From Escherichia phage vB_Eco_ZCEC15: 64,000 nt of DNA. Under the pieces are notes generated by a model that did not search any database, was not told where the DNA came from, and saw only the letters and a program-made list of their open reading frames with translations. Where the stretch lies: the sequence record PQ871103.1. One strand, written 5' to 3'. Every line of letters begins with the position of its first letter. Within the stretch, counting starts at the first letter, position 1. Both the position numbers and the translations under genes were made by a program. Positions 3,778 through 49,221 of the stretch are shown in pieces.

Positions 3778-3782
3778 ATTAA

Positions 3783-3809: not shown

Positions 3810-3810
3810 T

Positions 3811-3818
3811 TATAAATA
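3811..3818 (+). promoter_or_regulatory. late promoter TATAAATA for gene 9
   Basis: Exact TATAAATA 25 nt upstream of gene 9 ATG. Confidence 0.75.
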
Positions 3819-3842
3819 CTATAAACTCATAAGGAAACCGCT

Positions 3843-4709: not shown

Positions 4710-6514
4710 TGAAACAAAATATTAATATCGGTAATGTTGTTGATGATGGTACCGGTGACTACCTGCGTAAAGGTGGTATAAAAATAAATGAAAACTTTGA
4801 TGAACTTTATTATGAACTTGGCGATGGAGATGTTCCATATTCAGCCGGTGCCTGGAAAACTTATAATGCTTCATCCGGTCAAACATTAAAAGCTAAGTGG
4901 GGAAAATCATACGCTATTAATACCTCTTCTGGAAGAGTAACTTTACAACTTCCTAAAGGAACTGTTAATGATTATAATAAAGTAATTAGAGCTAGGGATG
5001 TATTTGCAACATGGAACATTAATCCAGTTACTTTAGTAGCTGCTTCTGGGGATACAATTAAAGGGTCGTCATCGTCAGTTGAAATTAATATTCAATTTAG
5101 TGATTTAGAGCTCGTTTATTGCGCTCCAGGACGTTGGGAGTATGTCAAAAACAAACAAATTGATAAAATTATTAGTTCAGATATTAGTAATGTAGCTCGC
5201 AAAGAATTTTTAGTAGAAGTTCAAGGACAAACTGACTTTTTAGATGTTTTCCATGGAACTAGTTATAATGTCAATAACATCAGAGTAAAACACCGCGGTA
5301 ACGAATTATATTACGGCGATGTATTTAGTGAAAACAGTGACTTTGGCTCTCCGGGGGAAAATGAAGGAGAATTAATTCCTCTTGATGGATTTAATATTAG
5401 GTTAAGACAGCCTTGTAATATTGGCGACACTGTTCAAATTGAAACGTTTATGGATGGTGTATCACAATGGAGAAGTTCATATACAAGACGCCAAATAAAA
5501 GTACTAGATTCAAAACTAACATCAAAGACTTCTTTAGAAGGAAGCATTTATGTTACTGATTTATCGGCGATGAAATCAATTCCATTCTCTGCGTTTGGAT
5601 TAATTCCTGGCGAACCCATTAATCCTAATTCTCTCGAGGTTCGTTTTAATGGAATTTTACAGCAACAGGCTGGAACAGCTGGGTATCCTCTGTTTTTGTG
5701 CGAAGGCGCTAATTCAGATACGCAAGAAGGATGTATATCTCTTGGTGGCGAATGGAAAGAATCAAACACAGATTATTCTATAGAATATGAAGATGGAAAA
5801 CCTACAAGTCTTTTATTTGATAGAAAATTTGAATCAGGCGATATAATCGTTATAACGTGGTTCAATAATGATTTAGGAACTCTTTTAGAAAAAGATGACA
5901 TCATTGAATTAACGGATGACCGTTATGTTAGTAAAGGATCATCTACCGAAGTTACTGGTGATGTAGCCTTAACGGATTTTGATAAAATCGGTTGGCCAAA
6001 TGTTGAAAAAGTTGATTCTTATACTAGAACGTATAATTCAATATCATCTATTTTCGATAGCATTTATCCTGTAGGTTCAATTTATGAAAATGCTATAAAC
6101 CCAAATAATCCGGTGACTTATATGGGGTTTGGTTCGTGGAAATTATTTGGTAAAGGACAAGTTTTAGTAGGATGGAATGATGATGTTACAGATCCAAACT
6201 TTGCATTAAACAATAATGATTTAGATTCTAGCGGAAATCCTTCACATACTGCCGGTGGAACAGTTGGAACAACGTCAGTAACGCTTGAAAATGCAAATCT
6301 TCCTGCGACTAAAACTGACGAAAGAGTTTTAATTGAAGATGAAAATGGATCAGTTATTATTGGAGGTTGTCAATATGACCCAGATGAAACTGGTCCTATA
6401 TATACAAAATATCGTGAAGACTATGCAACAACAAACTCTTCACATACTCCTCCTACTAATATTAGTAATATTCAACCGTCTATTACTGTATACCGTTGGA
6501 TAAGGATTGCATAA
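4709..6514 (+). CDS. 10: baseplate wedge protein gp10
   Basis: 601 aa (T4 gp10 about 602 aa); start overlaps gene 9 stop; synteny. Confidence 0.93.
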
Positions 6515-32997: not shown

Positions 32998-33009
32998 TAT
33001 TTATAAATA
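32998..33009. promoter_or_regulatory. palindromic divergent late promoters for gene 26 (-) and gene 51 (+)
   Basis: TATTTATAAATA is its own reverse complement and contains TATAAATA on both strands. Confidence 0.7.
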
Positions 33010-33026
33010 GAATAAAAGGAGCATCT

Positions 33027-33779
33027 ATGGCAAACATTATTCGCTGTAAATTACCAGATGGTGTTCATCGTTTTAAACCATTTACGGTAGAAGATTATCG
33101 AGATTTTTTGTTAGTTCGAAACGATATAGAACATCGGTCACCACAAGAACAAAAAGAAATAATTGCTGATTTAATTGCTGATTATTTTGGAGACTATCCA
33201 AAGACTTGGCAGCCATTTATATTTTTGCAGGTATTTGTAGGGTCAATAGGTAAAACTAAAGTACCGGTCACATTTGTATGTCCAAAATGCAAAAAAGAAA
33301 AGACAGTTCCATTTGAAATATATCAAAAAGAATTAAAGGAACCTGTTTTTGATGTAGCTAATGTTAAAATTAAATTAAAGTTTCCTTCTGAGTTTTATGA
33401 AAATAAAGCAAAGATGATTACTGAAAATATTCATTCCGTTCAAGTAGATGAAATGTGGTATGATTGGAAGGAAATTAGCGAATCGAGTCAAATAGAACTT
33501 GTTGATGCCATCGAGATAGAAACATTAGAAAAAATTCTCGATGCAATGAATCCTATTAATTTAACACTGCATATGTCGTGTTGTAATAAGTATGTAAAAA
33601 AATACACTGATATAGTAGATGTGTTTAAGCTATTAGTTAATCCAGATGAGATATTTACTTTTTATCAAATTAATCACACACTTGTAAAAAGTAATTATAG
33701 CTTAAATTCAATAATGAAAATGATTCCTGCTGAGCGCGGATTCGTATTAAAACTGATTGAGAAGGATAAACAACAATGA
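33027..33779 (+). CDS. 51: baseplate hub assembly catalyst gp51
   Basis: 250 aa (T4 gp51 249 aa); synteny. Confidence 0.9.
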
Positions 33780-34951
33780 GTATGTTGCAACGCCCCGGAT
33801 ATCCAAATCTCAGCGTTAAATTATTTGAGAGTTATGACGCTTGGAGTAATAATAGATTTGTTGAATTAGCTGCTACTATTACCACATTAACTATGCGGGA
33901 TTCTCTTTATGGTCGAAATGAAGGAATGCTGCAGTTTTATGATTCTAAAAATATCCATACAAAAATGGATGGAAATGAAATAATTCAGATTTCTGTAGCT
34001 AATGCAAACGATATTAATAATGTTAAAACACGAATTTATGGGTGTAAGCACTTTTCCGTATCGGTAGATTCAAAGGGTGATAACATCATTGCTATTGAAT
34101 TGGGAACTATTCATTCTATAGAAAATCTTAAATTTGGCAGACCGTTTTTCTCTGATGCAGGTGAATCTATAAAGGAAATGCTTGGTGTCATTTATCAGGA
34201 TCGCACGTTATTAACTCCAGCAATAAATGCTATAAATGCTTATGTTCCTGATATTCCATGGACTAGCACATTTGAAAACTATTTGTCGTATGTCAGAGAA
34301 GTTGCTCTAGCTGTAGGAAGTGACAAATTTGTATTTGTATGGCAAGACATCATGGGAGTTAACATGATGGACTATGATATGATGATAAATCAAGAACCAT
34401 ATCCAATGATTGTCGGTGAGCCATCTTTAATAGGTCAATTCATCCAAGAATTAAAATATCCATTAGCATATGATTTCGTTTGGTTGACTAAATCGAATCC
34501 TCATAAACGCGACCCAATGAAAAATGCTACTATCTATGCTCATTCATTTTTAGATTCTTCATTGCCAATGATTACTACAGGAAAGGGCGAAAACTCTATT
34601 GTAGTGTCAAGGTCAGGTGCTTATTCTGAAATGACTTATAGGAATGGATATGAAGAAGCTATTCGTCTTCAAACTATGGCGCAATATGATGGCTATGCTA
34701 AATGTTCTACTGTCGGTAATTTTAACTTGACTCCTGGTGTTAAAATTATTTTTAATGATAGTAAAAACCAATTTAAAACAGAATTTTACGTTGATGAAGT
34801 TATCCATGAATTATCAAATAATAATTCAGTAACTCATCTATATATGTTCACTAATGCAACGAAACTGGAAACAATAGACCCAGTTAAGGTTAAAAATGAA
34901 TTTAAATCTGATACTACCACTGAAGAAAGTAGTTCTTCCAATAAGCAATAA
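33776..34951 (+). CDS. 27: baseplate hub protein gp27
   Basis: 391 aa, same as T4 gp27; synteny. Confidence 0.93.
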
Positions 34952-35429
34952 AGAAGTTTCTATTCCTAAAATGGGTCTTAAACATTATAACATTTTAAAA
35001 GATGTTAAAGGTCCTGATGAAAATTTAAAACTTTTGATCGATTCTATTTGTCCGAATTTATCACCAGCAGAAGTTGATTTCGTTTCCATTCATTTATTGG
35101 AATTTAATGGAAAGATTAAATCTCGTAAAGAAATAGATTGTTATACTTATGACATAAATGACGTTTATGTATGCCAAAGATTAGAATTTCAATACCGAGG
35201 AAATACATTTTATTTTAGACCTCCTGGAAAATTTGAGCAATTTTTGACAGTAAGCGATATGTTATCTAAATGCTTGCTTAAGGTCAATGATGAAGTTAAA
35301 GAAATTAATTTTCTTGAGATGCCAGCATTTGTATTAAAATGGGCAAATGATATTTCTACAACTTTAGCAATTCCTGGCCCTAATGGTCCAATAACTGGAA
35401 TTGGCAATATTATTGGATTATTTGAATGA
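34896..35429 (+). CDS. 28: baseplate hub distal protein gp28
   Basis: 177 aa, same as T4 gp28; overlaps 3' end of gene 27. Confidence 0.88.
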
Positions 35430-37198
35430 AAAAGCCACAAGAAATGCAAACGATGCGTAGAAAAGTTATTTCAGATAATAAACCAGTTCAGGAAGCGGCT
35501 AAATCCGCTTCTAACACTTTATCTGGGCTTAATGACATTTCTACAAAATTGGATGATGCTCAAGCTGCTTCTGAATTAATAGCTCAAACCGTTGAAGAAA
35601 AATCGAATGAAATAATTAGAGCAATTGACAATGTAGAAAGCGCAGTGAGTGATACTACTGCTGGTTCTGAGTTAATTGCTGAAACTGTAGAAATTGGCAA
35701 CAATATTAATAAAGAAATCGGTGAATCACTCGGAAGTAAATTAGATAAATTAACGAGTTTACTAGAACAAAAAATTCAAACAGCTGGAATTCAACAGACA
35801 GGAACCAGCTTAGCTGTAGTCGAAAGTGCTATTCCCGTTAAAGTTGTCGAGGATGATACAGCTGAATTTGTTGGTCCATTATTACCAGCTCCTGAAGCAG
35901 TTAATAATGATCCTGACGCTGATTTTTTCCCTGCCCCTCAACCAGTTGAACCTAAGCGAGAGTCACCGGAAGAAAAACAGAAAAAAGAAGCATTTAATTT
36001 AAAATTATCTCAAGCTTTAGATAAATTAACAAAGACTGTTGATTTTGGATTTAAAAAATCCATTTCAATTACTGATAAAATATCAAGCATGCTATTTAAG
36101 TATACTGTCAGTGCTGCTATTGAAGCTGCTAAAATGGTTGCATTAATAATGGCTGTTGTTATTGGAATAGACCTACTGATGGTTCATTTTAAATATTGGT
36201 CAGATAAATTTTCAAAAGCCTGGGATTTGTTTAGCACTGATTTTAAAACTTTTTCAAGCGAAACCGGAACTTGGGGTCCTTTATTACAGAGCATCTTTGA
36301 ATCTATTGATGAAATTAAAAAGTTCTGGGAAGCGGGAGATTGGGGCGGTTTGACGGTAGCTATTGTAGAAGGGCTTGGAAAGGTTCTTTATAATTTAGGA
36401 GAACTTATTCAGCTTGGAATGGCTAAATTATCAGCAGCAATTCTTCGAGTTATTCCTGGTATGAAAGATACTGCTGACGAAGTAGAAGGAAGAGCACTGG
36501 AAAATTTCCAAAATTCTACTGGAGCATCTCTCAATAAAGAAGACCAGGAAAAAGTTGCGAATTATCAAGATAAACGAATGAATGGAGACCTTGGTCCGAT
36601 AGCAGAAGGACTAGACAAAATTGCGAACTGGAAAACCCGTGCATCTAACTGGATTCGTGGTGTTGATAATAAAGAAGCATTGACAACTGATGAAGAACGC
36701 GCAGCAGAAGAAGAAAAATTAAAGCAACTTTCACCAGAAGAAAGAAAAAATGCTTTAATGAAGGCTAATGAAGCCCGTGCCGCGATGATTCGTTTTGAAA
36801 AATATGCTGATTCAGCTGATATGAGTAAAGACTCAACGGTTAAATCAGTTGAAGCTGCCTATGAAGACCTTAAAAAACGGATGGATGACCCGGATTTAAA
36901 TAATTCACCGGCAGTTAAAAAAGAACTTGCTGCTAGATTTTCTAAAATTGATGCTACTTATCAAGAGCTCAAGAAAAATCAGCCTAATGCCAAACCTGAA
37001 ACTTCTGCTAAATCGCCAGAAGCAAAACAAGTCCAGGTAATAGAAAAGAACAAAGCACAGCAAGCTCCTGTTCAACAAGCATCTCCTTCAATCAATAATA
37101 CTAATAATGTTATTAAGAAAAATACTGTCGTTCATAATATGACACCCGTAACGAGCACAACTGCTCCTGGTGTATTTGGCGCGACTGGAGTTAATTAA
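35426..37198 (+). CDS. 29: tail tape measure / baseplate hub protein gp29
   Basis: 590 aa, same as T4 gp29; ATGA overlap with 28. Confidence 0.92.
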   Translation: MKKPQEMQTMRRKVISDNKPVQEAAKSASNTLSGLNDISTKLDDAQAASELIAQTVEEKSNEIIRAIDNVESAVSDTTAGSELIAETVEIGNNINKEIGESLGSKLDKLTSLLEQKIQTAGIQQTGTSLAVVESAIPVKVVEDDTAEFVGPLLPAPEAVNNDPDADFFPAPQPVEPKRESPEEKQKKEAFNLKLSQALDKLTKTVDFGFKKSISITDKISSMLFKYTVSAAIEAAKMVALIMAVVIGIDLLMVHFKYWSDKFSKAWDLFSTDFKTFSSETGTWGPLLQSIFESIDEIKKFWEAGDWGGLTVAIVEGLGKVLYNLGELIQLGMAKLSAAILRVIPGMKDTADEVEGRALENFQNSTGASLNKEDQEKVANYQDKRMNGDLGPIAEGLDKIANWKTRASNWIRGVDNKEALTTDEERAAEEEKLKQLSPEERKNALMKANEARAAMIRFEKYADSADMSKDSTVKSVEAAYEDLKKRMDDPDLNNSPAVKKELAARFSKIDATYQELKKNQPNAKPETSAKSPEAKQVQVIEKNKAQQAPVQQASPSINNTNNVIKKNTVVHNMTPVTSTTAPGVFGATGVN

Positions 37199-37206
37199 GG
37201 AATAAT

Positions 37207-38301
37207 ATGGCAATTGTTAAAGAAATAACTGCTGATTTAATCAAAAAGTCCGGTGAGAAAATTTCAGCCGGACAGAGTACTAAATCAGAAGTAGGAACTA
37301 AAACATACACAGCCCAGTTTCCAACTGGGCGTGCTAGTGGGAATGACACTACAGGGGACTTCCAGGTAACAGATCTATATAAGAATGGATTATTATTTAC
37401 TGCATACAATATGTCATCTAGGGATTCTGGAAGTCTCAGAACGATGAGATCTAACTACTCTTCTTCATCTTCTAGTATTTTACGTACAGCCAGAAACACT
37501 ATCAGTAATACAGTATCAAAGCTGTCAAATGGATTAATATCAGATAATAATTCAGGAACAATAAGTAAAGTTCCTGTTGCAAATATTCTTTTACCGAGAT
37601 CTAAATCCGATGTTGATACATCATCACATAGATTTAACGATGTTCAAGATAGTCTTATTACAAAAGGTGGAGGTACTGCTACTGGCGTGTTAAGCAATAT
37701 GGCTTCAACTGCAGTATTTGGAGCACTGGAAAGTATAACACAAGGTATAATGGCTGATAATAATGAACAGATTTATACGACAGCCAGAAGTATGTATGGT
37801 GGTGCTGAGAATAGAACTAAAGTGTTCACTTGGGATTTGACTCCGCGTTCCACAGAAGATTTAATGGCTATTATTAATATCTATCAATATTTTAACTATT
37901 TTTCTTACGGTGAAACGGGTAAATCTCAATATGCTGCTGAAATAAAAGGATATCTAGATGAGTGGTATCGCTCTACTTTTATTGAGCCATTAACTCCAGA
38001 AGATGCAGTTAAAAATAAGACGTTATTTGAGAAAATGACATCGAGTTTAACTAACGTTCTTGTAGTTTCAAACCCGACAATTTGGATGGTTAAAAACTTT
38101 GGCGCAACTTCTAAATTTGACGGAAAAACAGAAGTGTTTGGACCGTGTCAAATTCAAAGTATTAGATTTGATAAAACTCCGAATGGTAATTTTAACGGAT
38201 TAGCTATTGCTCCAAACCTCCCTAGTACATTTACTCTTGAGATTACTATGAGAGAAATTATCACGTTAAACCGTGCTTCTTTATATGCGGGGACTTTTTA
38301 A
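37207..38301 (+). CDS. 48: baseplate-tail tube junction protein gp48
   Basis: 364 aa, same as T4 gp48. Confidence 0.92.
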   Translation: MAIVKEITADLIKKSGEKISAGQSTKSEVGTKTYTAQFPTGRASGNDTTGDFQVTDLYKNGLLFTAYNMSSRDSGSLRTMRSNYSSSSSSILRTARNTISNTVSKLSNGLISDNNSGTISKVPVANILLPRSKSDVDTSSHRFNDVQDSLITKGGGTATGVLSNMASTAVFGALESITQGIMADNNEQIYTTARSMYGGAENRTKVFTWDLTPRSTEDLMAIINIYQYFNYFSYGETGKSQYAAEIKGYLDEWYRSTFIEPLTPEDAVKNKTLFEKMTSSLTNVLVVSNPTIWMVKNFGATSKFDGKTEVFGPCQIQSIRFDKTPNGNFNGLAIAPNLPSTFTLEITMREIITLNRASLYAGTF

Positions 38302-39266
38302 TGTATTCTTTAGAGGAATTTAATAATCAAGCAATAAACGCAGATTTTCAACGTAATAATATGTTTAGCTGCGTTTTTGCGACAACTCCATCAACTAAAA
38401 GCTCTTCGTTGATAAGTTCAATTAGCAACTTTTCTTATAATAATTTGGGTCTAAATTCAGACTGGTTAGGATTGTCTCAAGGCGATATTAATCAGGGAAT
38501 TACCACGCTAATTACTGCTGGCACACAAAAACTGATAAGAAAATCAGGGGTTAGTAAATATCTTATTGGTGCCATGAGTCAACGTACAGTTCAAAGTTTA
38601 TTGGGCTCATTTACAGTCGGTACATATTTAATTGACTTCTTTAACATGGCATATAACTCATCTGGGTTGATGATATATTCTGTAAAAATGCCAGAGAATA
38701 GATTATCCTATGAAACTGACTGGAACTATAATTCTCCTAATATTCGTATAACTGGGAGAGAATTAGACCCTTTGGTTATTTCATTTAGAATGGATTCAGA
38801 AGCTTGTAACTATCGTGCAATGCAAGACTGGGTTAACGCTGTTCAAGACCCAGTAACTGGACTGCGTGCTTTGCCACAAGATGTCGAGGCAGATATTCAG
38901 GTTAATCTTCATGCTCGTAATGGATTACCTCATACTGCGGTGATGTTCACTGGATGCATTCCAGTGTCAGTGAGCGCTCCTGAGTTATCATATGATGGAG
39001 ATAACCAAATAACTACATTTGATGTTACTTTTGCATATAGAGTCATGCAGGCTGGAGCAGTTGATAGACAAGCTGCCCTTGAATGGCTTGAATCTGCTGC
39101 TATAAACGGTATTCAAAGCGTTCTCGGAAATAGTGGAGGTGTCACTGGATTATCTAATTCGCTTTCACGACTTAGTAGATTAGGGGGAACTGCTGGAAGC
39201 ATTTCAAACATTAATACTATGACGGGAATTGTCAACTCGCAAAGTAAAATATTAGGAGCAATATAA
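38301..39266 (+). CDS. 54: baseplate-tail tube initiator gp54
   Basis: 321 aa (T4 gp54 about 320); followed by bidirectional hairpin terminator. Confidence 0.92.
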   Translation: MYSLEEFNNQAINADFQRNNMFSCVFATTPSTKSSSLISSISNFSYNNLGLNSDWLGLSQGDINQGITTLITAGTQKLIRKSGVSKYLIGAMSQRTVQSLLGSFTVGTYLIDFFNMAYNSSGLMIYSVKMPENRLSYETDWNYNSPNIRITGRELDPLVISFRMDSEACNYRAMQDWVNAVQDPVTGLRALPQDVEADIQVNLHARNGLPHTAVMFTGCIPVSVSAPELSYDGDNQITTFDVTFAYRVMQAGAVDRQAALEWLESAAINGIQSVLGNSGGVTGLSNSLSRLSRLGGTAGSISNINTMTGIVNSQSKILGAI

Positions 39267-39270
39267 CAAT

Positions 39271-39300
39271 GGGGACCTTTTGGTCCCCATATTTTTATTT
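39271..39300. terminator. bidirectional terminator between gene 54 (+) and minus-strand early genes
   Basis: GGGGACC-TTTT-GGTCCCC hairpin followed by ATATTTTTATTT. Confidence 0.8.
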
Positions 39301-39585
39301 ACGGAATGAAATAAAAGCAGCAACTGAAGCAACTAAACTGTCTTCAATATAAACTTCAATTTTTACCGGAGCTTCTGACTCAAATTTACCTGTTACTACA
39401 CCTTGGAAAATGCTTTCAGTCTGTTCTGGCTTTGAAAAATTTTCAGAAGGAAAAATTCCGAACTTTTTATCTGTTCCAAAAATTTTGATAAATTCATCAT
39501 AAACTGCTTCATTAAAAGCGTTATCAGCAGGAATAACGCCTTCAACTACAAGTTCTTGACCTAAAAAGCGTAAAGAAGATTTCAT
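39295..39585 (-). CDS. hypothetical early protein, 96 aa
   Basis: Minus-strand ORF directly downstream of a perfect early promoter (GTTTACA-N17-TATAAT) that is a 54-bp exact copy of the alc promoter/leader. Confidence 0.65.
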   Translation of the reverse strand: MKSSLRFLGQELVVEGVIPADNAFNEAVYDEFIKIFGTDKKFGIFPSENFSKPEQTESIFQGVVTGKFESEAPVKIEVYIEDSLVASVAAFISFRK

Positions 39586-39592
39586 TTTGTGT

Positions 39593-39646
39593 TCCTCATG
39601 TTATGTCAGTAAGATTATTATAACACAACACGAGGGACTTGTAAAC
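39593..39646 (-). promoter_or_regulatory. early promoter cassette copy A (GTTTACA-N17-TATAAT plus leader)
   Basis: Minus strand GTTTACAAGTCCCTCGTGTTGTGTTATAATAATCTTACTGACATAACATGAGGA; identical over 54 nt to 55161-55214. Confidence 0.8.
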
Positions 39647-41703
39647 TACATCTTGAACTTTTTAGACATTTCGTTGATGTTAACCAAAGAAGCCAAGATT
39701 TGAGAAACTTCGTTTTCCTCTTCTTTTGATTCTTCTACAAGGAATTGATTAAACCCAGCCATTGGACGAACTTCGCCAGTTTCCATTAGATGATCGCCAT
39801 CATATACCGATTCTTCTAATTGTTCAGAAGGAGGAACGATTGTGCCTTCGATTAGATACTTGTTATAAGCAGTTTCTTTCATCATGTACGTGCTTACTTT
39901 ATTAATCTTCAACAAAATTCCACGCGGTAGAATAACTTCAGCTTCTGATGGAAATCCTGATAAATGACCTGGAACGATAACTTTGATTCGCTCAGCCCCT
40001 TTAATTACCATACCTACGCTAGCTTCAGCATCTTCATTAGCATATGCAGAATGACTACCCATATGCATTAAATCTTCAGCATCAACAGAACCTTCTCCTT
40101 CACCAGAAAATACTGCGCCGGAATCATCTAGAGCCATATAGTTTTTACCATGCTCACCGAAGATATTTGGTTTAAGCGACGTGGATACGAAGTTCTTGAA
40201 ATAGAACATTTTATTTTCAATATTATGACGTAAAGTTTTAAAAGTAACTTCTTGCCCACGATAAAGCGTAGTTCCTGGAGGAAGAACTGATCCTTTGGCG
40301 AATGCAGAATCCAGCGTCTCGATGTGTTTAATAGCTCGTTCAATGTATTCTTCACGGGTAGAATCTGGTTTACCCAAGAGGAACGAGTTCATTTCAACAT
40401 ATGAATCTGCACAATAATCTTCAATTACATCAGACTCAGCCTGAGTCAGTCCTTTTGGAGTTACTTCGGTGCTTGCATATTCATACGCCTGAGCAGCAGA
40501 TGCATTAATCAATTTATAAATGCCATTCATGACAAATCGAATAATAGCTACCTTTTCGTCTGGTGTGGCTTTAGAACCTTTAACTAAATCATTGATAATT
40601 TTCTTAATAACATCAAAGCTATTAGAAATATTAATGTCAGCGAGATCGCTCAAAATTTTATCGGTTTTATAATCAAAAAATTCTTTATTCTTTAAATATT
40701 CTTGAGAACCTTGATGTGTTATATCGCTCTGCAGTCTGATAGACGGATCACGTAAACGTGCATGGGCCAATGCAATATCATTTCGGAAGCTTTCTAGTTC
40801 ATAATCGTTAGATTTAAAACGAGAAGCACTTCTCATACCACCGATAGCTCCTTTGCTGAAGTTTGAACCAATCTGAATAACGCCAGAGTTCATTGATCCT
40901 TCTGCTTTATATACCGGAACTTTAGATTCAAACTCTTGATATTTCTTGGCAGCGAAGCTATCACCCTGTAGCGAAGCATCGACAGTAGAATATTGAGCTT
41001 GCGCTGCTAATCGACGACTAATTTTAGTTTTCTGAATAACAGCTTGATCCGTGCGCTTATCATTTTCTAAAGCAACAGAAGCAGCAACAGCAACAGCTTT
41101 AGGAACAGCATTACCTGTTTTAACATCTACATAAACATCACCAACCTTTGATTCAACTTTTGTGAATAACTCAGTTGAAATAGGAGGTACACCTGGAATG
41201 TCTTCTAAATTGGCATTTTTACGGTAAACCATAATATATGCATACTTTTTATCGTAATCCCAGATTTCCTTTAAAAGAACATATCGACCTGCTCCTTTAG
41301 TACGTACTAAACGGTCAGCAATAACTTGCATCTGACGAGCAGCGCCATTTGTTTTACTTTTTAGTACGCGGAATAGGCATGCGTCAATTTTATACTGTTT
41401 CATTGTTTGAAGAGCAGTATCAAAAACCGCATTAATGACACCAATTGGATTTCCACCCAAGTTTTTAAGTTTAACTAATGATAGTTTCTCATTAACACCT
41501 ATCATTACGATATGCATCATTTTATCGCCTGGCTTAACGTTTTTATTTGTATCACCGCCAGAGGTGTATGTACAAAATCTAAATCCAGGAAGCACGCTTT
41601 CTTCACCGGCTTGAATAGCAAAAATTTGAGGTATTTTATGCTTAGGATTTAAGTTAACAACCGGCGCCGAAGCGCCGTCAAATAATTCTGTAATAAGTTC
41701 CAT
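39646..41703 (-). CDS. Alt-like ADP-ribosyltransferase, paralog 2 (685 aa)
   Basis: N-terminus MELITELFD shared with adjacent paralog; C-terminal ART-like signature: Arg (TTLYRGQ), STS (FVSTSL), Glu-x-Glu (SEAEVILPRG). Confidence 0.85.
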   Translation of the reverse strand: MELITELFDGASAPVVNLNPKHKIPQIFAIQAGEESVLPGFRFCTYTSGGDTNKNVKPGDKMMHIVMIGVNEKLSLVKLKNLGGNPIGVINAVFDTALQTMKQYKIDACLFRVLKSKTNGAARQMQVIADRLVRTKGAGRYVLLKEIWDYDKKYAYIMVYRKNANLEDIPGVPPISTELFTKVESKVGDVYVDVKTGNAVPKAVAVAASVALENDKRTDQAVIQKTKISRRLAAQAQYSTVDASLQGDSFAAKKYQEFESKVPVYKAEGSMNSGVIQIGSNFSKGAIGGMRSASRFKSNDYELESFRNDIALAHARLRDPSIRLQSDITHQGSQEYLKNKEFFDYKTDKILSDLADINISNSFDVIKKIINDLVKGSKATPDEKVAIIRFVMNGIYKLINASAAQAYEYASTEVTPKGLTQAESDVIEDYCADSYVEMNSFLLGKPDSTREEYIERAIKHIETLDSAFAKGSVLPPGTTLYRGQEVTFKTLRHNIENKMFYFKNFVSTSLKPNIFGEHGKNYMALDDSGAVFSGEGEGSVDAEDLMHMGSHSAYANEDAEASVGMVIKGAERIKVIVPGHLSGFPSEAEVILPRGILLKINKVSTYMMKETAYNKYLIEGTIVPPSEQLEESVYDGDHLMETGEVRPMAGFNQFLVEESKEEENEVSQILASLVNINEMSKKFKM

Positions 41704-41706
41704 GAT

Positions 41707-43803
41707 TTATCCTTGAACGAACTTGTAAGGCATGTTTGCAATATCTATGCAAGATGCAATAATTCCAAGAGATGATTCTACTTTTTGTTTAACATTTGAT
41801 GAAACAAATGTTGCAAAGTCAACTCTGTCTTCTATTTCAATATCATCTGTCATTGCAACTACTTCACCAGTTTCCATTAGACTGTCACCGTCATAAATTA
41901 CCGATTCGGTGAGTTCTTCTGTAGTCATAACTTCAGCTTGAATGAGTTTTGTATTATTAGATGTTGTTCCGTCATTATTAGAAGCATCAGTTATTTTATT
42001 AACTTTGACCATCAATCCGCGCGGCAGAATAACTTCAGCTTCTGTTGCTATTCCGAGACTTCCTGGATATACAACATTAACTTTATGAGCTCCATCAATT
42101 GCCCATCCTATTTGAACTTTAACGTATTCAGGATTTTCTTTATACGCTCTTATTTCATTTGGATTAATAGTTATTCCTTCTTCATTTTTATCAACTGTTA
42201 ATTCATTACGAGCTTCTGGTTCTAAAAGACCAATACCAGCATGCGTAATTCCAAAACGTCCAAAAATGATAGGAGTTAAAGAAGTAGATACAAAATTTCT
42301 GAAATAGAACACTTTATTTTTAACTAGTGCTTCGTATATAGGAGCAGTCATGCTTTGAGCACGATAAACTGTAATGCCTTCTGGTATACGGTCACCATTT
42401 TCAAAGGCTGAATCTAAATTATTTATCGCAGATTCAATTTCTTTTTCACTCATTACCTCATATCGTTCTGGATTGTAGCGACCTAAAAGAAGATTATTGA
42501 TGTCAGTATATCCTGAACCACAATACTCTCTAATGCCGCGCTTTTGTGATGGAGTATATTTAGAACCATCACGAGCAATAGTAATATCAATCATTGGACC
42601 TGCACCAATTCCAGAAAAACTATAAATCATTCTTTTGAGGAATTTAGTTTTTGCTGCGTTCCAGGAATTTTTAGTTATTTCTTCCCAGACTTCATCTGTC
42701 TGTCCTTTACGAGTTTTATTATGTTTATCAAGCCAGTTATCTTTATATTCTTCAAATAATTGATTAACAACTGTTGCGTATTTCTCTAAACATTTTATTG
42801 AAGTAGTTGGTTCATTTTTAATCGCATTAAGAATTACATCTTTAATTTTTTCAGAAACTTCATTAACCTCACTTTTTGAAAAGAATTTATAGTCATAATG
42901 AAGTTCATCTGCAGTTCCTTCAGCAATAATTTTTGCTGCCTTAGTTTTAGAAGCTAATGAATTAATTCCAAGCTTCATTTCTTCTGCTTCGGGAATTAAA
43001 GGAGCTGTAGCAGGTTTATTGAAATTAGCTGCGGTAGATTCATACTTCTGGAATAATTCACTTTCAAATCTAGAAGATTCCAATGATTGACTTTGTGCAA
43101 TTGCTCTACGGGAAATTTTAACTTTAACGATTACAGCTTGGTCAGAACGTTTATCATTTTCTAGTGCAATAGATGCTGCAATTGCCTCATTTTTAGTTAC
43201 TTGAGCTCCAGTATCTTTATTGATATAAACATCACCGACTTTCGATTCAACTTTAGTAAAGAGCTCGGTACTAATTTCTGGAACTCCTGGAATGTCTTCT
43301 AATGATACATTTTTGCGATGTATAAGAATATATGCATACTTTTTATCATAATCCCAGAGTTCCTTAAGAAGGACGTATCTGCCACCTGAGCGACTACGGA
43401 TAAGTCTATCAGCAATAACTTGAATTTGTCGAGCTTGACCAGCAGTTTTAGACTTAAGAATACGGAGCATACAGGCATCAATTTTATACTGACGCATTGT
43501 TTGCATTGCAACAGTAAAAACTGAATTGATATAATTAATTGGGCTTGGACCAAGACCTTTCAATTTAGCAATTGAACCTTTAGCAGTTAATGTAAAAGGA
43601 ACAATATGCATCATTTTATCGCCCATCTTTAAATCACGATTAGTATCACCTCCAGATGTATAGGTACATAAACGAAAGCCTGGTTGTTCAATTGCATCAT
43701 CAACATGAACTGAAAAAATTTGTGGTATTTTCTTCTTTGGATTTAAGTTTGTAATCGGAAGAGTAGTATCTTCGTCAAATAATTCTGTAATGAGTTCCAT
43801 CAT
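41707..43803 (-). CDS. alt: Alt ADP-ribosyltransferase (698 aa), head-packaged internal protein
   Basis: N-terminus (M)MELITELFD; ART signature Arg (ITVYRAQ), STS (FVSTSL), Glu-x-Glu (TEAEVILPRG); late promoter TATAAATA and hairpin upstream on minus strand; position between 54 and 30 as T4 alt. Confidence 0.88.
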   Translation of the reverse strand: MMELITELFDEDTTLPITNLNPKKKIPQIFSVHVDDAIEQPGFRLCTYTSGGDTNRDLKMGDKMMHIVPFTLTAKGSIAKLKGLGPSPINYINSVFTVAMQTMRQYKIDACMLRILKSKTAGQARQIQVIADRLIRSRSGGRYVLLKELWDYDKKYAYILIHRKNVSLEDIPGVPEISTELFTKVESKVGDVYINKDTGAQVTKNEAIAASIALENDKRSDQAVIVKVKISRRAIAQSQSLESSRFESELFQKYESTAANFNKPATAPLIPEAEEMKLGINSLASKTKAAKIIAEGTADELHYDYKFFSKSEVNEVSEKIKDVILNAIKNEPTTSIKCLEKYATVVNQLFEEYKDNWLDKHNKTRKGQTDEVWEEITKNSWNAAKTKFLKRMIYSFSGIGAGPMIDITIARDGSKYTPSQKRGIREYCGSGYTDINNLLLGRYNPERYEVMSEKEIESAINNLDSAFENGDRIPEGITVYRAQSMTAPIYEALVKNKVFYFRNFVSTSLTPIIFGRFGITHAGIGLLEPEARNELTVDKNEEGITINPNEIRAYKENPEYVKVQIGWAIDGAHKVNVVYPGSLGIATEAEVILPRGLMVKVNKITDASNNDGTTSNNTKLIQAEVMTTEELTESVIYDGDSLMETGEVVAMTDDIEIEDRVDFATFVSSNVKQKVESSLGIIASCIDIANMPYKFVQG

Positions 43804-43823
43804 ATCCTCTCTAGTGTTTATTC

Positions 43824-43831
43824 TATTTATA
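43824..43831 (-). promoter_or_regulatory. late promoter TATAAATA for alt operon
   Basis: Minus strand TATAAATA about 20 nt upstream of alt start, preceded by GGCC-UUCG-GGCC hairpin (43839-43852). Confidence 0.7.
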
Positions 43832-43838
43832 AAATTAA

Positions 43839-43852
43839 AGGCCCGAAGGCCT
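43839..43852 (-). terminator. AGGCC-UUCG-GGCCU hairpin upstream of alt late promoter
   Basis: Plus strand aggcccgaaggcct; on minus strand followed by UUUAAUUUUAUAAAU. Confidence 0.6.
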
Positions 43853-44041
43853 TTAATAATCTATAGGTAAGAGAGTACGATATATTTCAAACTTTGGACC
43901 TTTTTCATAAGCATCAAAAGTTTCTGTGAATTTATTATAAGCATATGCATCTATAAATTCAATCATAATTTGTGATACAGAAGTAGAAACATCTCCACCT
44001 TCTTTTTGAGCCACGACAATTGTTTCTAAGTAAGCTTTCAT
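43853..44041 (-). CDS. hypothetical small protein between ligase and alt
   Basis: 62 aa; start overlaps ligase stop (ATGA). Confidence 0.55.
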   Translation of the reverse strand: MKAYLETIVVAQKEGGDVSTSVSQIMIEFIDAYAYNKFTETFDAYEKGPKFEIYRTLLPIDY

Positions 44042-45498
44042 AGACCAGTTACCTCATGAAAATCACCAAATACATCCTCGAATGTATTAGCTTTAGTTTT
44101 ATCTTCACGTAAACGAATCGCAATCGGAAGAAATAATTTAACGTAATCAGTGCGGCCATCAGATTTTAACCAACCATTGCATTCACATTCTAGAATTTTT
44201 CCAATATAATAATTTTGATTTTCCATAATGCGAGTACGGTCAAGTTCATGCGATTTTACACCGGCTTTATCTTTTAAGCCTGAACCAGCATTTACTTTAA
44301 TTTTTCCACACTCTGATTCAAGAATAAATCCACCTGCTTTAGTAGGGTCTTTACGGTGAGGATAAATTCCTACAATTTTTAAATCAACATCAATTACTTC
44401 TTTAAATTTATAAAGATTTTTTGAACGAGCATTTTCCCACAATCCATCGGTATTTTTGAGAATAATACCTTCAAGACCTTGGTCAATATATTTTTTATAA
44501 ATTACCTTAGCTTCATCTAGGTTATTTACTACCTGGTTTTCAATTAAAATTACTTTATCATATCCTGACGTCATTTGTTCTAATTTAGAAAAACGTACAT
44601 CATATTTTAAACGAAACGCCGGAAGACCGTATATTTCTACCAACGGGACATAATCCCAGACCTGAAACTTCATGCATTTGGCTTCTTTTTCTGAAATAGT
44701 TCCCTTTAAAGATTTATTGGCGATTCCATTAGAAGCAGTACGTGATTCAGCTACTTCGGCAAACTCTTTAACTTTACTATTTTCAGGAGCGTCAAAAAGA
44801 AAATCTAGGCCTTCTGGCTCCTTTTCAACTTGCTCGTGGTATACCAATTCGCCATCAATTAACACACCTTCTGGATGAATCTGGCGGGCTTCTGCAGTCA
44901 TTTTGATTAACTCTTCCTTAAGAAGATCTAATCCTAGATATTCATTACCAGCTCGTGATAAAAGACGAACATCATCTAATTCATCACCTCGGACTTCAGC
45001 AAAACACCGAGCTCCATCTGCTTTTAACTGTGCAAAGGCTGGAAATTTGATATTCTTACTAATGCCTTTTTCATCATAAGAACTTGCCAGCATTTGAGGT
45101 TGTTCAGGAATTAAACCTGGCCAAACTTTATTTGCAATAGATACCGAAGCACCACATTCAAGGTCTCGCATCATAACTCGACGCAAAACTTCAACATCAT
45201 CCTTTTTACCATCAGTGATATATCCAGTTAATTCCTCAATTGCAGCATTTCCAGTCAATTTCCGAGTAGCTAACGTGAATTCAATGAAGTCAAGCATATC
45301 GGTAATAGTCAGCATTCCAAAACTCTGGGTAGAAATACCAGGTTTAGGCCATTTCTTGATATAATACTGTAACCCACGAGAATAAGTCAGACGATATACT
45401 CTTTTAAGCAATTCATTATCTTTATTCTTTTCAAGAATTGCTTGCTTCTGCTTAGTTGATCCAATAGATGCTATTTCATTCAGAATTTTAAGAATCAT
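44038..45498 (-). CDS. 30: ATP-dependent DNA ligase gp30
   Basis: 486 aa; N-terminus MILKILNEIASIGSTKQKQAILEKNKDNELLKRVY as T4 ligase; adenylation motif KADGARC. Confidence 0.95.
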   Translation of the reverse strand: MILKILNEIASIGSTKQKQAILEKNKDNELLKRVYRLTYSRGLQYYIKKWPKPGISTQSFGMLTITDMLDFIEFTLATRKLTGNAAIEELTGYITDGKKDDVEVLRRVMMRDLECGASVSIANKVWPGLIPEQPQMLASSYDEKGISKNIKFPAFAQLKADGARCFAEVRGDELDDVRLLSRAGNEYLGLDLLKEELIKMTAEARQIHPEGVLIDGELVYHEQVEKEPEGLDFLFDAPENSKVKEFAEVAESRTASNGIANKSLKGTISEKEAKCMKFQVWDYVPLVEIYGLPAFRLKYDVRFSKLEQMTSGYDKVILIENQVVNNLDEAKVIYKKYIDQGLEGIILKNTDGLWENARSKNLYKFKEVIDVDLKIVGIYPHRKDPTKAGGFILESECGKIKVNAGSGLKDKAGVKSHELDRTRIMENQNYYIGKILECECNGWLKSDGRTDYVKLFLPIAIRLREDKTKANTFEDVFGDFHEVTGL

Positions 45499-45764
45499 TG
45501 CTCATCCTTCAAGGTTTGGTTTACAGCTCTATTATAAATCAATTCATCATTAAGCTCAGGCAAAGACCTATGATATGTAGTTCTAACTTTATTTCCTTGC
45601 ATCCAGTGCTTAACGTAAATGAAACCTTGCTCTACACATTTTTTAAAAATTCGTTCGTCTTTTTGAGCTCGGAATTCTGGATTGCATCTAAAAAATTGAT
45701 TTACGTGACCGTAATCACGTGTAGTATTACCTTCATTTTCATAAATAGTGTGAACGACAAACAT
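45495..45764 (-). CDS. hypothetical protein (30.x cluster)
   Basis: 89 aa, co-oriented, overlapping neighbours by 4 nt. Confidence 0.6.
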   Translation of the reverse strand: MFVVHTIYENEGNTTRDYGHVNQFFRCNPEFRAQKDERIFKKCVEQGFIYVKHWMQGNKVRTTYHRSLPELNDELIYNRAVNQTLKDEQ

Positions 45765-46603
45765 TAGAATGCTCCTTGGAAAATATTATCACCGCTAGTA
45801 GGTCTATTATACAAATACTCTATGCCACCAGGTTTAATATAGTTCCATGTCTGAAATGGATGTGTCTGATATGGATGATATAGATGATTATAAGGATTAA
45901 ATCCAGGCGTTCTCCAGGTAGTGTTCCAAGGAAAAGAATCGTTTTTAACCATCTTCTCAATTAAATCTTTTATAGCTTTTTCACTATCAAAACTTTCTTT
46001 ATTTTCCTTCGGCGAAAAAAGCTTATTTTCTACATCATTCCATGTATAAACTCGCTGAGCAGTTTTTGGAATATTGTCACGCTCTCCTCGAGCCATCCAA
46101 TAAACAGGAACATTTAATATTTCACTCGCATGATCGCAGTGATGAGCGAGATCGTCAATATAACAAATTACGTTATATTTCTCTTTTGCCTTTTTAAACA
46201 ACTCTTCTTTTGAAGAATCATGACCACACATCATTACTTCTGAGAAGGCACCAGGAAAAAGAGCATTCAAATTAAATTGACGATTCAACAGAGCGTCAAT
46301 AGAATCACCCAATGCTGTGACAGCTACAAAATTATAATCTTCTTTTAATTTGTTAATTACACACAGTGCATCTTTATATGGAGACAAGTAACGAATAAAA
46401 TCTGATCGATTATATTTTTCAATTAGCTTGACACCAAGTTCTTCATCACAATTAAAGAGTTTACCTGGAGAAATAAATTTCTCATCTTGGATCATTTTTA
46501 AAATATGTTCTAACGGAAGATTATATTTCTGAGCAAAATAAGGAAGACCTGATTGCCAGCTTAAACATACTCCATCAATATCAGTTAAAATAGTAGGCTT
46601 CAT
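45764..46603 (-). CDS. hypothetical HAD-like phosphatase/nucleotidase (30.x cluster)
   Basis: 279 aa; N-terminal LTDIDGVCL resembles HAD motif I (DxDG); synteny with T4 30.2. Confidence 0.7.
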   Translation of the reverse strand: MKPTILTDIDGVCLSWQSGLPYFAQKYNLPLEHILKMIQDEKFISPGKLFNCDEELGVKLIEKYNRSDFIRYLSPYKDALCVINKLKEDYNFVAVTALGDSIDALLNRQFNLNALFPGAFSEVMMCGHDSSKEELFKKAKEKYNVICYIDDLAHHCDHASEILNVPVYWMARGERDNIPKTAQRVYTWNDVENKLFSPKENKESFDSEKAIKDLIEKMVKNDSFPWNTTWRTPGFNPYNHLYHPYQTHPFQTWNYIKPGGIEYLYNRPTSGDNIFQGAF

Positions 46604-47058
46604 AGAGAGTCTCTTAATAGGTTTAACACATCAATAAATTCAGCTTCGGTTAGTATTGTATCATCTTTTGTTAGACCACTAGCCATGCTGTGCTTCAAAA
46701 CTTTTCCTTTCGAGGCTTGTAATGCATCGCGAAAGCCCTTGTTTTGGAACGCTGCTTCAAAATATGCATTTGTGTATAATTCTTTCCACGCTGGAGAGTA
46801 TCTTGAAAACGGAACTCCAAGCCAGAAGAGGGTCCCACGGTCCTGAGCTCTAGCATAAGACCTTCCAGCTTGTTGGGCGGCAAGCCCGGATAACCCAAAT
46901 ATACGTCTTTGCTGTTCAACATTTTTCACCTTACATCCTTGGAGGAATCCTTCGAGACCTCCAAATTGAATGTCATCCATAACGAAAGGCCATTGGGCGA
47001 AATTACTTAATGCACATGATGGCCATTTAAAATTGCTTCTAATCTCTAACTCAGACAT
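46600..47058 (-). CDS. hypothetical protein (30.x cluster)
   Basis: 152 aa; co-oriented operon member. Confidence 0.65.
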   Translation of the reverse strand: MSELEIRSNFKWPSCALSNFAQWPFVMDDIQFGGLEGFLQGCKVKNVEQQRRIFGLSGLAAQQAGRSYARAQDRGTLFWLGVPFSRYSPAWKELYTNAYFEAAFQNKGFRDALQASKGKVLKHSMASGLTKDDTILTEAEFIDVLNLLRDSL

Positions 47059-47266
47059 CTTTAATACTTATAATTTCAATATCAGCCCAATGACCGTAAC
47101 TTGGTAAACGGTCTTCAATAGATAATCCGCCATCATATTTAAGCATTTTAATTGTCATAATATATGGCTCTAAATGGTCTTCAGTGAGCGGAGAGACATC
47201 AGTCACACGATAAGTAACTTCGACCATTTCCGTGCCCAGTAATTTCTTGATTAATTTCTTAAACAT
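47051..47266 (-). CDS. hypothetical protein (30.x cluster)
   Basis: 71 aa. Confidence 0.55.
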   Translation of the reverse strand: MFKKLIKKLLGTEMVEVTYRVTDVSPLTEDHLEPYIMTIKMLKYDGGLSIEDRLPSYGHWADIEIISIKDV

Positions 47267-47270
47267 TTTA

Positions 47271-47558
47271 TTAGAACCTCATCTGAAAACCGTGCGATTT
47301 AACATTACCGCCGCCAATATCAGAAATGTTAATTTCACGCGCAATTGAAGGGTCAATGTCAATTTCACGATTGAGTTTAGTGATAGCTAAAGTATCGCGG
47401 CCATTTACAGTACGGAACTCTAAAGGACATACTACATTAACGTAGTTTTTAATCGATTCGCTGGTAGGTTGCAAATGAGCAGGAAGGTCTTTAGGCGCCT
47501 TAGAGAAAACCACTTCACAGAAATTTTTGCGGGTGTCAAAATAAGTAGTCATAAACAT
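47271..47558 (-). CDS. hypothetical protein (30.x cluster)
   Basis: 95 aa. Confidence 0.55.
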   Translation of the reverse strand: MFMTTYFDTRKNFCEVVFSKAPKDLPAHLQPTSESIKNYVNVVCPLEFRTVNGRDTLAITKLNREIDIDPSIAREINISDIGGGNVKSHGFQMRF

Positions 47559-47574
47559 AGTATTTTCCTCAGTA

Positions 47575-47590
47575 AGGGGCCGAAGCCCCT
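47575..47590 (-). terminator. AGGGGC-UUCG-GCCCCU hairpin between 30.x genes
   Basis: Plus strand aggggccgaagcccct between two co-oriented minus-strand ORFs. Confidence 0.55.
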
Positions 47591-47599
47591 CATTTTATT

Positions 47600-47977
47600 T
47601 TAAATATCAAATTCGTTAAGAACTACATCAAAGATTGCTTCAAGATGCTCAGGTTTAGCTCTGTTACTCAGAATATGACGAATCCAAGTTTTAACCAGAA
47701 GCTTGCGATTAACGCCATTCCAGCAAGGATGAGTCCCTAAATCGCGTTGACGAAAATCATCATCCAAAGCGATTTTGAAGTTGGAACCTTCCATTGTGAT
47801 TGAAACCGTGATGCCATTTTCAAATCGCATATAAACGTAGTTAGGAGTCATATACTGTTCAATTTCGCATACTGATCCATTTTGATGTTTCCAAAGGCAA
47901 ATAGTATCAATAGAACCTGCAATACCATTAGAAACATATTTACGTTCAAAGTTGATGTAGTTCATTTTATTCTCCAA
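47600..47977 (-). CDS. hypothetical protein (30.x cluster)
   Basis: 125 aa; own early promoter upstream (47991-48030). Confidence 0.6.
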   Translation of the reverse strand: MENKMNYINFERKYVSNGIAGSIDTICLWKHQNGSVCEIEQYMTPNYVYMRFENGITVSITMEGSNFKIALDDDFRQRDLGTHPCWNGVNRKLLVKTWIRHILSNRAKPEHLEAIFDVVLNEFDI

Positions 47978-47990
47978 GATGTTTAATTGC

Positions 47991-48030
47991 GGTACAGGTA
48001 TATAATATCATATCCTGTACCAAAGTAAAC
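47991..48030 (-). promoter_or_regulatory. early promoter embedded in inverted repeat (PeSL-like)
   Basis: Minus strand GTTTACT-N16-TATTAT; -10 region enclosed by inverted repeat GGTACAGG/CCTGTACC. Confidence 0.7.
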
Positions 48031-48032
48031 AA

Positions 48033-48365
48033 TTATTTTACTACTTTCCAGTGCTGCATGTCAAGTTTACCAACTTTTTTCATCTTCTCAATTAAGCGTT
48101 CGGCACGTTGGCGAGCTGTAACATAATACCATTCACCCAATTCATTTTGTTCAATTTTTCCAACGATTACCGTATTCAATTCATAAATCCAACCAGTAAA
48201 GAAATTATGAACTTGAATTGTAAAGGTGAAATCTGTTCCCATACCTTCTGTTGTTTCTACTTCAATAATATCACCTTCAACTGCCATTAAGAACCACATA
48301 GTTTCATCATATTTACCGTTGAAGCATTTAGTTTTAACTGCAGCGTTCAGATTAATTGTTTTCAT
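48033..48365 (-). CDS. hypothetical protein (30.x cluster)
   Basis: 110 aa; own early promoter upstream (48374-48422). Confidence 0.6.
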   Translation of the reverse strand: MKTINLNAAVKTKCFNGKYDETMWFLMAVEGDIIEVETTEGMGTDFTFTIQVHNFFTGWIYELNTVIVGKIEQNELGEWYYVTARQRAERLIEKMKKVGKLDMQHWKVVK

Positions 48366-48373
48366 TTTATTCT

Positions 48374-48422
48374 CCTTTGTTTGTGTAAGATAATACTATC
48401 ACAAAGGAACCATACTGTAAAC
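48374..48422 (-). promoter_or_regulatory. early promoter embedded in inverted repeat (PeSL-like)
   Basis: Minus strand GTTTACA-N17-TAGTAT with flanking inverted repeat CCTTTGTG/CACAAAGG. Confidence 0.7.
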
Positions 48423-48440
48423 AACTTTGTGCAGTCTTTG

Positions 48441-48470
48441 GAAAATAAAAAAGGACTCCCGAAGGAGTCC
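48441..48470 (-). terminator. intrinsic terminator (GGACUCC-UUCG-GGAGUCC + U-run) after the 58-aa basic protein gene
   Basis: 7-bp stem with UUCG loop on minus strand followed by UUUUUUAUUUUCC. Confidence 0.75.
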
Positions 48471-48475
48471 TCAAC

Positions 48476-48652
48476 TTATGCTTTCTGCTTACCAAAACGA
48501 GAAGCATCATCTCGAAGAACCGCACGTGCTCGGCGCATGATCTTCTCAACAGTTTGATTGATACGAGAGTTCGACCCACGCTTGTAACCAGCGCGTTTAG
48601 AATCACCAACTTTCTTTTCAACTGCTTTCTTTGCTTTAGCTTGTTTTGCCAT
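48476..48652 (-). CDS. small basic protein (position of T4 30.9), 58 aa
   Basis: Second in-frame ATG gives MAKQAKAKKAVEKK...; Lys/Arg-rich; followed on minus strand by hairpin+U-run terminator. Confidence 0.6.
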   Translation of the reverse strand: MAKQAKAKKAVEKKVGDSKRAGYKRGSNSRINQTVEKIMRRARAVLRDDASRFGKQKA

Positions 48653-48846
48653 TATAAATTCTCTTTTAAATGAAAATGCAGGACTTATTGGCATTGCCTG
48701 CGCAAGCCCTCAAGGGGAACATAGGTTTTGAATATTTACCGACAGGATAACCATAAACCTCGTCAACATTCAAGAGGTACACCGTAAAACAAAGTTCGAC
48801 GGCTCCTCGATTTTAGCTCACACTAAGGCAGTGAATCTCCAATAAA

Positions 48847-49095
48847 TTACTTCAGTGTTACCACAAAGTGACGAACTGCTTTTCGTGCAGCAGAAGCCAG
48901 TGGCTTAGCATATTTAAGTTCATCTTTTTCCTGAAGCTCAGCAGCTAATGCAGTTTGAGCAGGATTCAGATGTTTGAAATAACGCAGGATTTCAAGAGCT
49001 TCGGCTTCAACATCAATAGATGCGCCATAGTTTTCGTGACCATTATTCCATGCGTTTCGTTGCAGTTCAAGAGCGTGTTGTAATTGTTTAATCAT
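48847..49095 (-). CDS. rIII: rIII lysis inhibition accessory protein
   Basis: 82 aa, same length as T4 RIII; position between 30.x cluster and gene 31. Confidence 0.85.
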   Translation of the reverse strand: MIKQLQHALELQRNAWNNGHENYGASIDVEAEALEILRYFKHLNPAQTALAAELQEKDELKYAKPLASAARKAVRHFVVTLK

Positions 49096-49221
49096 TTAAA
49101 AATTCTCGTTAGAGATTAAAACTCGGTAGTCACGTTCTTCTGAATTTCATCTTCTTTCGACAGATCTCTCAGTTGTAGACTACCACATAGAATTGAAACC
49201 CAATTCATATTATTATTTATA

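Follow-up and report, generated by a model that had tools for sequence, protein, structure and literature searches.

Tandem Alt-family ADP-ribosyltransferase genes in Escherichia phage vB_Eco_ZCEC15 and the remnant of the second gene in phage T4

The alt locus of vB_Eco_ZCEC15

The window analysed here, a stretch of 64,000 nucleotides from Escherichia phage vB_Eco_ZCEC15 (PQ871103.1), is a segment of a Tequatrovirus (T4-like) genome. It contains two adjacent genes of the Alt family of ADP-ribosyltransferases (ARTs). The upstream gene, here called P1, is the ortholog of T4 alt, and the downstream gene, P2, is a full-length version of what is annotated as alt.-2. The minus-strand genes are, in order, gene 30 (ligase), alt.1, P1, P2 and alt.-3, and next to these lie the plus-strand genes 54, 48 and 29. 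Over 39200-44100 the sequence matches Escherichia phage UGKSEcP2 at 98.6% identity, and 341 phage records span at least 80% of this region. The two genes occupy the position between gene 30/alt.1 and alt.-3/gene 54 that is kept for Alt-type genes. Table 1 lists the features of the two genes.

Table 1. Features of the alt locus, in positions of the window (segments in residues of P1, counted from its second ATG, and of P2)
Feature	Position	Strand	Basis or remark
P1, alt ortholog	41707..43803	-	List of open reading frames; 698 aa from the first ATG, 697 aa from the second ATG (43800)
P1 N-domain, residues 1-238	43087..43800		
P1 central region, residues 239-410			
P1 ART domain, residues 411-632	41905..42570		
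P1 predicted C-terminal propeptide, residues 633-697			
P2, full-length alt.-2	39646..41703	-	List of open reading frames; 685 aa
P2 N-domain, residues 1-238	40990..41703		
P2 helical central region, residues 239-415			
P2 ART domain, residues 416-631	39811..40458		
P2 predicted C-terminal propeptide, residues 632-685	39649..39810		
Spacer between P1 stop (TAA, 41707-41709) and P2 ATG (41703)	41704..41706	-	3 nt, read from the sequence
TATAAATA, T4-type late promoter motif upstream of P1	43824..43831	-	Exact match
G+C-rich hairpin AGGCCTTCGGGCCT followed by a T-rich run	43839..43852	-	Read directly from the sequence
CTAAAAAGT, 9-bp direct repeat, proximal copy (P2 codons ~114-116)	41356..41364	-	Upstream endpoint of the T4-type deletion
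CTAAAAAGT, distal copy (final P2 codons)	39657..39665	-	Downstream endpoint of the T4-type deletion
A-run ACAAATAAAAACGTT in P2	41536..41550	-	One A missing in T4 (pairwise alignment)

The late promoter motif TATAAATA lies 20 nt before the first ATG of P1 and is the only copy on either strand within 33009-49214; its role as a promoter is deduced from the T4 late-promoter consensus. No second copy and no minus-strand terminator-like site were found by scanning between P1 and P2, and a separate promoter between the genes could not be told from chance (21 sigma-70-like sites against 20.7 expected). The Shine-Dalgarno sequence of P2, AAGGA, falls inside the 3' end of P1, and the first minus-strand terminator-like site past P2 is at 39290-39269. 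Since there is one late motif, a 3-nt spacer and no terminator-like site between the genes, co-transcription and translational coupling of P1 and P2 are plausible. The hairpin AGGCCTTCGGGCCT sits between the stop codon of alt.1 and the late promoter motif and looks like the terminator of the upstream unit; a consensus terminator scan did not list it.

Two Alt-family proteins and their predicted packaging

A preliminary description of this locus, made from the sequence alone, had taken the two minus-strand reading frames of 698 and 685 aa for tandem full-length Alt paralogs, and the comparisons made here agree. The proteins are 41% identical over their full length (BLASTP, E = 5e-156), and the family phrog_802, "Alt-like RNA polymerase ADP-ribosyltransferase", spans both end to end (9e-271 for P1 and 2.5e-254 for P2). 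Both match the Pfam family PF03496 (ADPrib_exo_Tox), P1 with 2.2e-37 (128.8 bits) and P2 with 6.6e-20 (71.7 bits), where the curated cut-off is 23.4 bits. The Alt N-terminal domain PF26846 (Tevenvirinae_ADPRT) is precomputed on close homologs of both. P1 begins with MMELITELFD and P2 with MELITELFD, so the common N-terminus given in the description is present in both. The second ATG is the likely start of P1, since the spacing of the Shine-Dalgarno sequence GAGAGGA fits and the annotations of T4 and T6 use this codon.

The C-terminal ART signature is complete by motif in both proteins, as had been proposed, and no catalytic residue is lost on alignment. P1 contains YRAQ (479-482), FVSTS (503-507) and EAEVILPRG (587-595), with the predicted catalytic residues R480, S505-T-S507 and E587-A-E589, while P2 contains YRGQ (481-484), FVSTS (505-509) and EAEVILPRG (587-595), with R482, S507-T-S509 and E587-A-E589. 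These R, S-T-S and E-x-E elements are kept in nearly all of 13 aligned Alt homologs from seven phage lineages; STS is replaced by SAS or SCS in two homologs, and the upstream copy of the phage CUA3 is partly unread. By its fold the ART domain belongs to the ADP-ribosyltransferase exoenzyme family, and it appears to be of the C3/VIP2 type, within the C3/VIP2/iota/Vis clade of R-S-E mono-ADP-ribosyltransferase toxins. When P2 was compared with the sequences in PDB there was no match at E <= 0.01, and a profile search of a 5.8-billion-protein set, built on an alignment of 14 sequences, brought back the same 263 close relatives and nothing more remote.

The likeness between the two proteins is unevenly distributed. 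Counted along P1, they are 68% identical over residues 1-238, 16% over 239-410, 35% over 411-640 and 38% in the tail (641-697). In a sliding comparison the identity is about 55-82% over residues 1-238 and 17-26% over approximately 240-420, which is the strongly diverged central region of the preliminary description; it is 34-49% in the greater part of the ART domain, dipping to 10-17% near 520-560, and 26-46% in the tail. An AlphaFold2 model of P2 (mean pLDDT, the per-residue confidence score, 74.6) has an alpha/beta N-domain (~12-220), a helical part (~250-470), the ART domain (~475-625) and a low-confidence tail. An assembly artefact was ruled out as the source of the pair, as identity between the copies is only 41% and hundreds of independent genomes contain the pair. 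Together with the evidence on age and maintenance given below, these results make it probable, at about 0.7, that in P1 and P2 the T4 Alt family of NAD+:arginine mono-ADP-ribosyltransferases has two old members, each maintained in its own right.

In T4, Alt belongs to the prohead core, is found in about 40 copies per head and is injected with the DNA (PMC5694885, PMC9026906). It is cut by gp21 at ITE-6 and LTE-619 to a mature protein of 68.2 kDa (PMC5694885), and the mass calculated for T4 residues 7-619 is the same, 68.2 kDa. Motif matching gives as candidate gp21 sites ITE-6 and LTE-632 in P1 and ITE-6 and LEE-631 in P2, and the predicted mature masses are 70.2 and 69.0 kDa. The tail contains the motif YDGDxLMETGE, which is near-invariant across the aligned homologs. 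The N-domain family consists of 69 representative clusters among 1.84 billion proteins. The domain is always N-terminal, in proteins of ~600-710 aa, and an ART domain is also found in 36 of the 39 members scanned. This nearly constant association and fixed position fit a dedicated delivery module. The other possibility considered, that the N-domain is joined to various effector domains as in polymorphic toxins, was rejected on the same count. The only members without a recognisable domain are the distant P0235 and P0236 and the short P0238. P0235 (485 aa) and P0236 (541 aa) match the Alt N-domain weakly (E = 3e-8 and 8e-7), and no Pfam domain, ART or other, is recognisable in them; they may be Alt-like delivery domains that carry another cargo.

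From these features a course of events can be proposed. Late in infection P1 and P2 would be transcribed from the TATAAATA promoter, and P2 would probably be translationally coupled to P1 across the spacer. Sequence and model suggest for each protein an N-domain with the propeptide MELITE, a helical centre, a C3/VIP2-type ART domain and a conserved tail. By analogy with T4 Alt both may be built into the prohead core, after which gp21 would trim them behind ITE-6 and behind LTE-632 (P1) or LEE-631 (P2) to ~69-70 kDa before injection. Within the host both would ADP-ribosylate arginine residues, a specificity suggested by the E-x-E motif only. Packaging, processing, injection and choice of target are thus all proposed for P2 by analogy.

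The alternative that survives best, though it is improbable, is that P2 is active as an ART but is left out of the virion and acts in the cell late, or on phage or host proteins during assembly. Packaging has been shown for T4 Alt only, and phages do use non-packaged ARTs such as ModA and ModB (PMC10468400). However, the first nine residues of P2 (MELITELFD) are those of Alt, identity between the N-domains of P2 and P1 is 68%, the C-terminal propeptide of P2 is conserved and has an L-x-E site, and the N-domain family is nearly confined to full-length Alt-like proteins.

The remnant in T4 and the maintenance of P2

A tblastn search with P2 found 396 records at 95-99% identity, T6 among them. 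In many records two Alt-like ARTs are annotated at the locus, usually both as "Alt-like" or one as "alt.-2". The alt.-2 protein of T6 (AXN58232) is 97% identical to P2 and has the same position and orientation, with no material difference. Most Tequatrovirus records have both genes, and the arrangement, which was annotated and published before, is not new. In 2006 Nolan et al. (PMC1524935) named alt.-1 and alt.-2 of T4 as alt paralogs and recorded a duplicate of full length in 44RR, and an Alt duplication has been described in ZZ1, Ac42, JS98 and Bp7 (Jin et al., 2014; PMC4177764). In 44RR (ORF187c/188c), JS98, Bp7, Ac42 and ZZ1 the tandem Alt-family genes lie at the same locus as in the window; in copy number and completeness the Alt duplications of T4-like phages vary. 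What is added here is the exact nature of the T4 remnant, the strong constraint on P2 and a modular conflict between trees.

The preliminary description had named, as one of two findings that would refute its reading, that T4 might carry the identical two-gene arrangement. T4 was found to carry a deleted remnant of P2, and the interval between genes 54 and 30 is 3,031 nt in T4 against 4,771 nt in the window. In the alignment T4 is collinear with the window except for a gap across most of P2. The T4 genes alt.-1 (61 aa) and alt.-2 (67 aa) correspond near base-for-base to P2 codons 1-115, split in two by a frameshift because the A-run ACAAATAAAAACGTT is one A short. The T4 sequence then jumps from the proximal copy of the repeat CTAAAAAGT to the identical distal copy, so that 1,699 bp are gone, and it keeps the last 6 codons of P2 and the stop codon. 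The junction in T4 reads GTACTAAAAAGTTCAAAATGTAG, and a junction of this type is found in 91 records, among them T4 stocks, RB55, RB59 and some wild isolates.

Since both ends of P2 are retained and the jump runs from repeat to repeat, the base-level comparison shows that T4 carries a deletion in P2, and that the other phages carry no insertion. The T6 record labels its gene "alt.-2; apparent insertion in alt.-2; also similar to alt", whereas the present comparison shows the reverse. The T4 alt.-1 and alt.-2 reading frames (OL964745, 4553-4938; window 41356-41703) are still annotated as hypothetical proteins and have PHROGs of their own (phrog_23015 and phrog_15247), but they are probably pseudogene fragments. 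In Escherichia phage vB_EcoM_FJ1 (MZ170040) the match to P1 is 92% in three pieces over 2.44 kb, with the same pattern of pieces as in T4. This pattern suggests that an alt allele of the P1 type is here joined to a deleted P2, in which case the deletion may have spread by recombination or have arisen more than once.

Where P2 is present it appears to be under strong constraint. P2 differs from T6 alt.-2 by 78 synonymous and 22 non-synonymous changes, and the ratio of non-synonymous to synonymous divergence (dN/dS) is 0.069 and low in every segment. Against a 74%-identical variant in an independent assembly contig (L009) the ratio is 0.135. Together with a reading frame that is intact in ~400 records, these low ratios mark P2, by sequence evidence, as a live and maintained gene.

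These values also bear on the explanation that P2 is a redundant or decaying duplicate without a role of its own, heading for loss as in T4. The phages with the deleted remnant, T4 and those of 90 other records, are viable, and T4 alt is itself non-essential (PMC9026906). Yet dN/dS between the window and T6 is 0.07 in every segment, the catalytic and processing motifs are intact, the frame is open in ~400 records at 95-99% identity, and a P2-type copy is kept both in the more distant CUA3 and in contig L009. This explanation is accordingly given little credence, less than that of an unpackaged enzyme.

Some points weigh against P2 as a maintained, packaged ART. It is absent from T4 and 90 other records, and is thus dispensable at least in laboratory hosts. 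The cleavage motif [LI]-x-E is short, and each protein contains several further sites of this kind. The model of P2 has only 14 sequences behind it. The dN/dS between P1 and P2 in the central region is 0.73, a value made unreliable by the poor alignment there. Finally, the literature yielded no paper on what the full-length second copy does or on its presence in virions.

Modular evolution and neighbouring genes

The synonymous divergence (dS) between P1 and P2 is saturated at ~1.3 in all segments. This applies also to the N-domain (dS 1.32, dN/dS 0.21), and the N-terminal likeness is therefore better explained by constraint than by recent conversion. CUA3, a more distant phage, has two full-length copies, of which the upstream one is of the P1 type and the downstream one of the P2 type. 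The latter has the length of the 707-aa Alt proteins of JS10 and KM16 and, like them, is ~48% identical to P2. Both copies are also present in contig L009, including one of the P2 type. From the saturated dS, the presence of both types in CUA3 and the type-specific clades described below, which include both CUA3 copies, the duplication is judged to be old, neither recent nor unusual.

Neighbour-joining trees with bootstrap were made separately for residues 1-238 and residues 239-697, and they conflict. In the N-domain tree proteins group by lineage: all Tequatrovirus-type N-domains come together with 100% bootstrap, as do those of the two CUA3 copies and the Mosigvirus Alt. The tree of residues 239-697 is ordered by paralog type, with a P1-type and a P2-type clade at 100% bootstrap each. 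N-domain identity is 64-68% between paralogs, compared with 42-47% between Tequatrovirus-type and CUA3 copies. The C-terminal part of P1 is 71% identical to that of the upstream CUA3 copy and only 50% to that of the upstream L009 copy, the N-domain of which is 88% identical to that of P1. This pattern of N-domains grouping by lineage and the remainder by type indicates exchange of effector halves between lineages, an old homogenisation of N-domains, or both. The idea that the duplication is young, with N-domains made alike by recent gene conversion and fast-diverging C-terminal parts, could draw on the grouping of N-domains by lineage and on the closeness of the paralogs there, but it is very improbable given that saturation in the N-domain makes any homogenisation old, that the C-terminal parts fall in deep type-specific clades common to several lineages, and that the affinity of the P1 C-terminal part to CUA3 points to exchange of C-terminal modules.

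Mosaicism is also seen within alt itself, of which Tequatrovirus phages have two allele classes: 316 records are at least 90% identical to P1, which is 98-99% identical to the T6-type allele, and 212 records are at 60-80% (T4 type). T4 Alt (682 aa) and P1 are positional orthologs with common R-S-E motifs, ITE-6 and LTE cleavage motifs and a late-promoter motif, but their identity is 99% in the N-domain, 32% in the central region, 67% in the ART domain and 93% in the tail (dS 0.11, 1.37, 1.02 and 0.19). P2 has the same overall architecture and motifs as T4 Alt; it is 41-42% identical overall to T4-type Alt proteins, shares 10% with T4 Alt in the central region, and forms a separate deep clade.

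The number of copies varies among other phages. Aeromonas phage 31 (1058-5926) has three Alt-related reading frames of 319, 639 and 642 aa. The two full-length copies pair together in the N-domain and C-terminal trees (bootstrap 1.00 and 0.81), and for this reason the duplication may be independent. Krischvirus MIZ6 (2923-5877) has a full Alt and a stand-alone 274-aa ART without the N-domain, and a single Alt copy was found in each Mosigvirus, Jiaodavirus and Gaprivervirus phage examined.

The genes on either side of the pair are small. Alt.1 (43853-44041, minus strand, 62 aa) matches PF24647, "Phage blade protein" (7.5e-29), and shares 4 nt with the end of the ligase gene. Alt.-3 (39295-39585, minus strand, 96 aa) lies directly downstream of P2 and matches the Pfam family DUF5498 (1.4e-64). 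C-terminal extension mutants of T4 Alt.-3 block the degradation of CmdA and so evade the CmdTAC defence system (PMC11618068). A strong sigma-70-like promoter at 39617-39645 (minus strand), 1 nt past the P2 stop, has TTTACA, a 17-nt spacer, TATAAT and an extended TG (11 of 12 matches) and would drive alt.-3, probably early, apart from the late alt unit. A hairpin with a perfect 9-bp stem, ATGGGGACC-TTTT-GGTCCCCAT, is found at 39269-39290 between the converging genes 54 and alt.-3 and is terminator-like on both strands by the scan.

Returning to P1 and P2 as separately maintained enzymes, the low identity of their central and ART parts (16-35%), combined with purifying selection on each type, suggests that their targets in the host are most likely different proteins. 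Diversified target specificity and head packaging of the second copy, both put forward in the preliminary description, are reasonable to suppose. A further proposal is tentative, and we hold it at slightly under even odds: that T4 is a natural knockout of a conserved second injected ART with host targets of its own, possibly a defence or toxin-antitoxin component, and that Alt consists of two modules, an N-terminal packaging and delivery domain locked to the lineage, and central and catalytic halves of two deep types that are exchanged between lineages.

The locus is in itself ordinary, and the pair, although real and correctly interpreted at first reading, is of a kind that is known and widespread. 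Its practical value lies with the P2-type Alt, which is strongly conserved. To our knowledge, all that is known of injected ADP-ribosylation comes from T4, which is without the second enzyme. If T4 is indeed a natural knockout of P2, a second injected enzyme would have escaped study altogether, and T6 and phages like it are a ready system in which to ask what P2 modifies. That N-domains are bound to lineage and catalytic halves to type suggests that effectors can be reshuffled in these phages without disturbing packaging.

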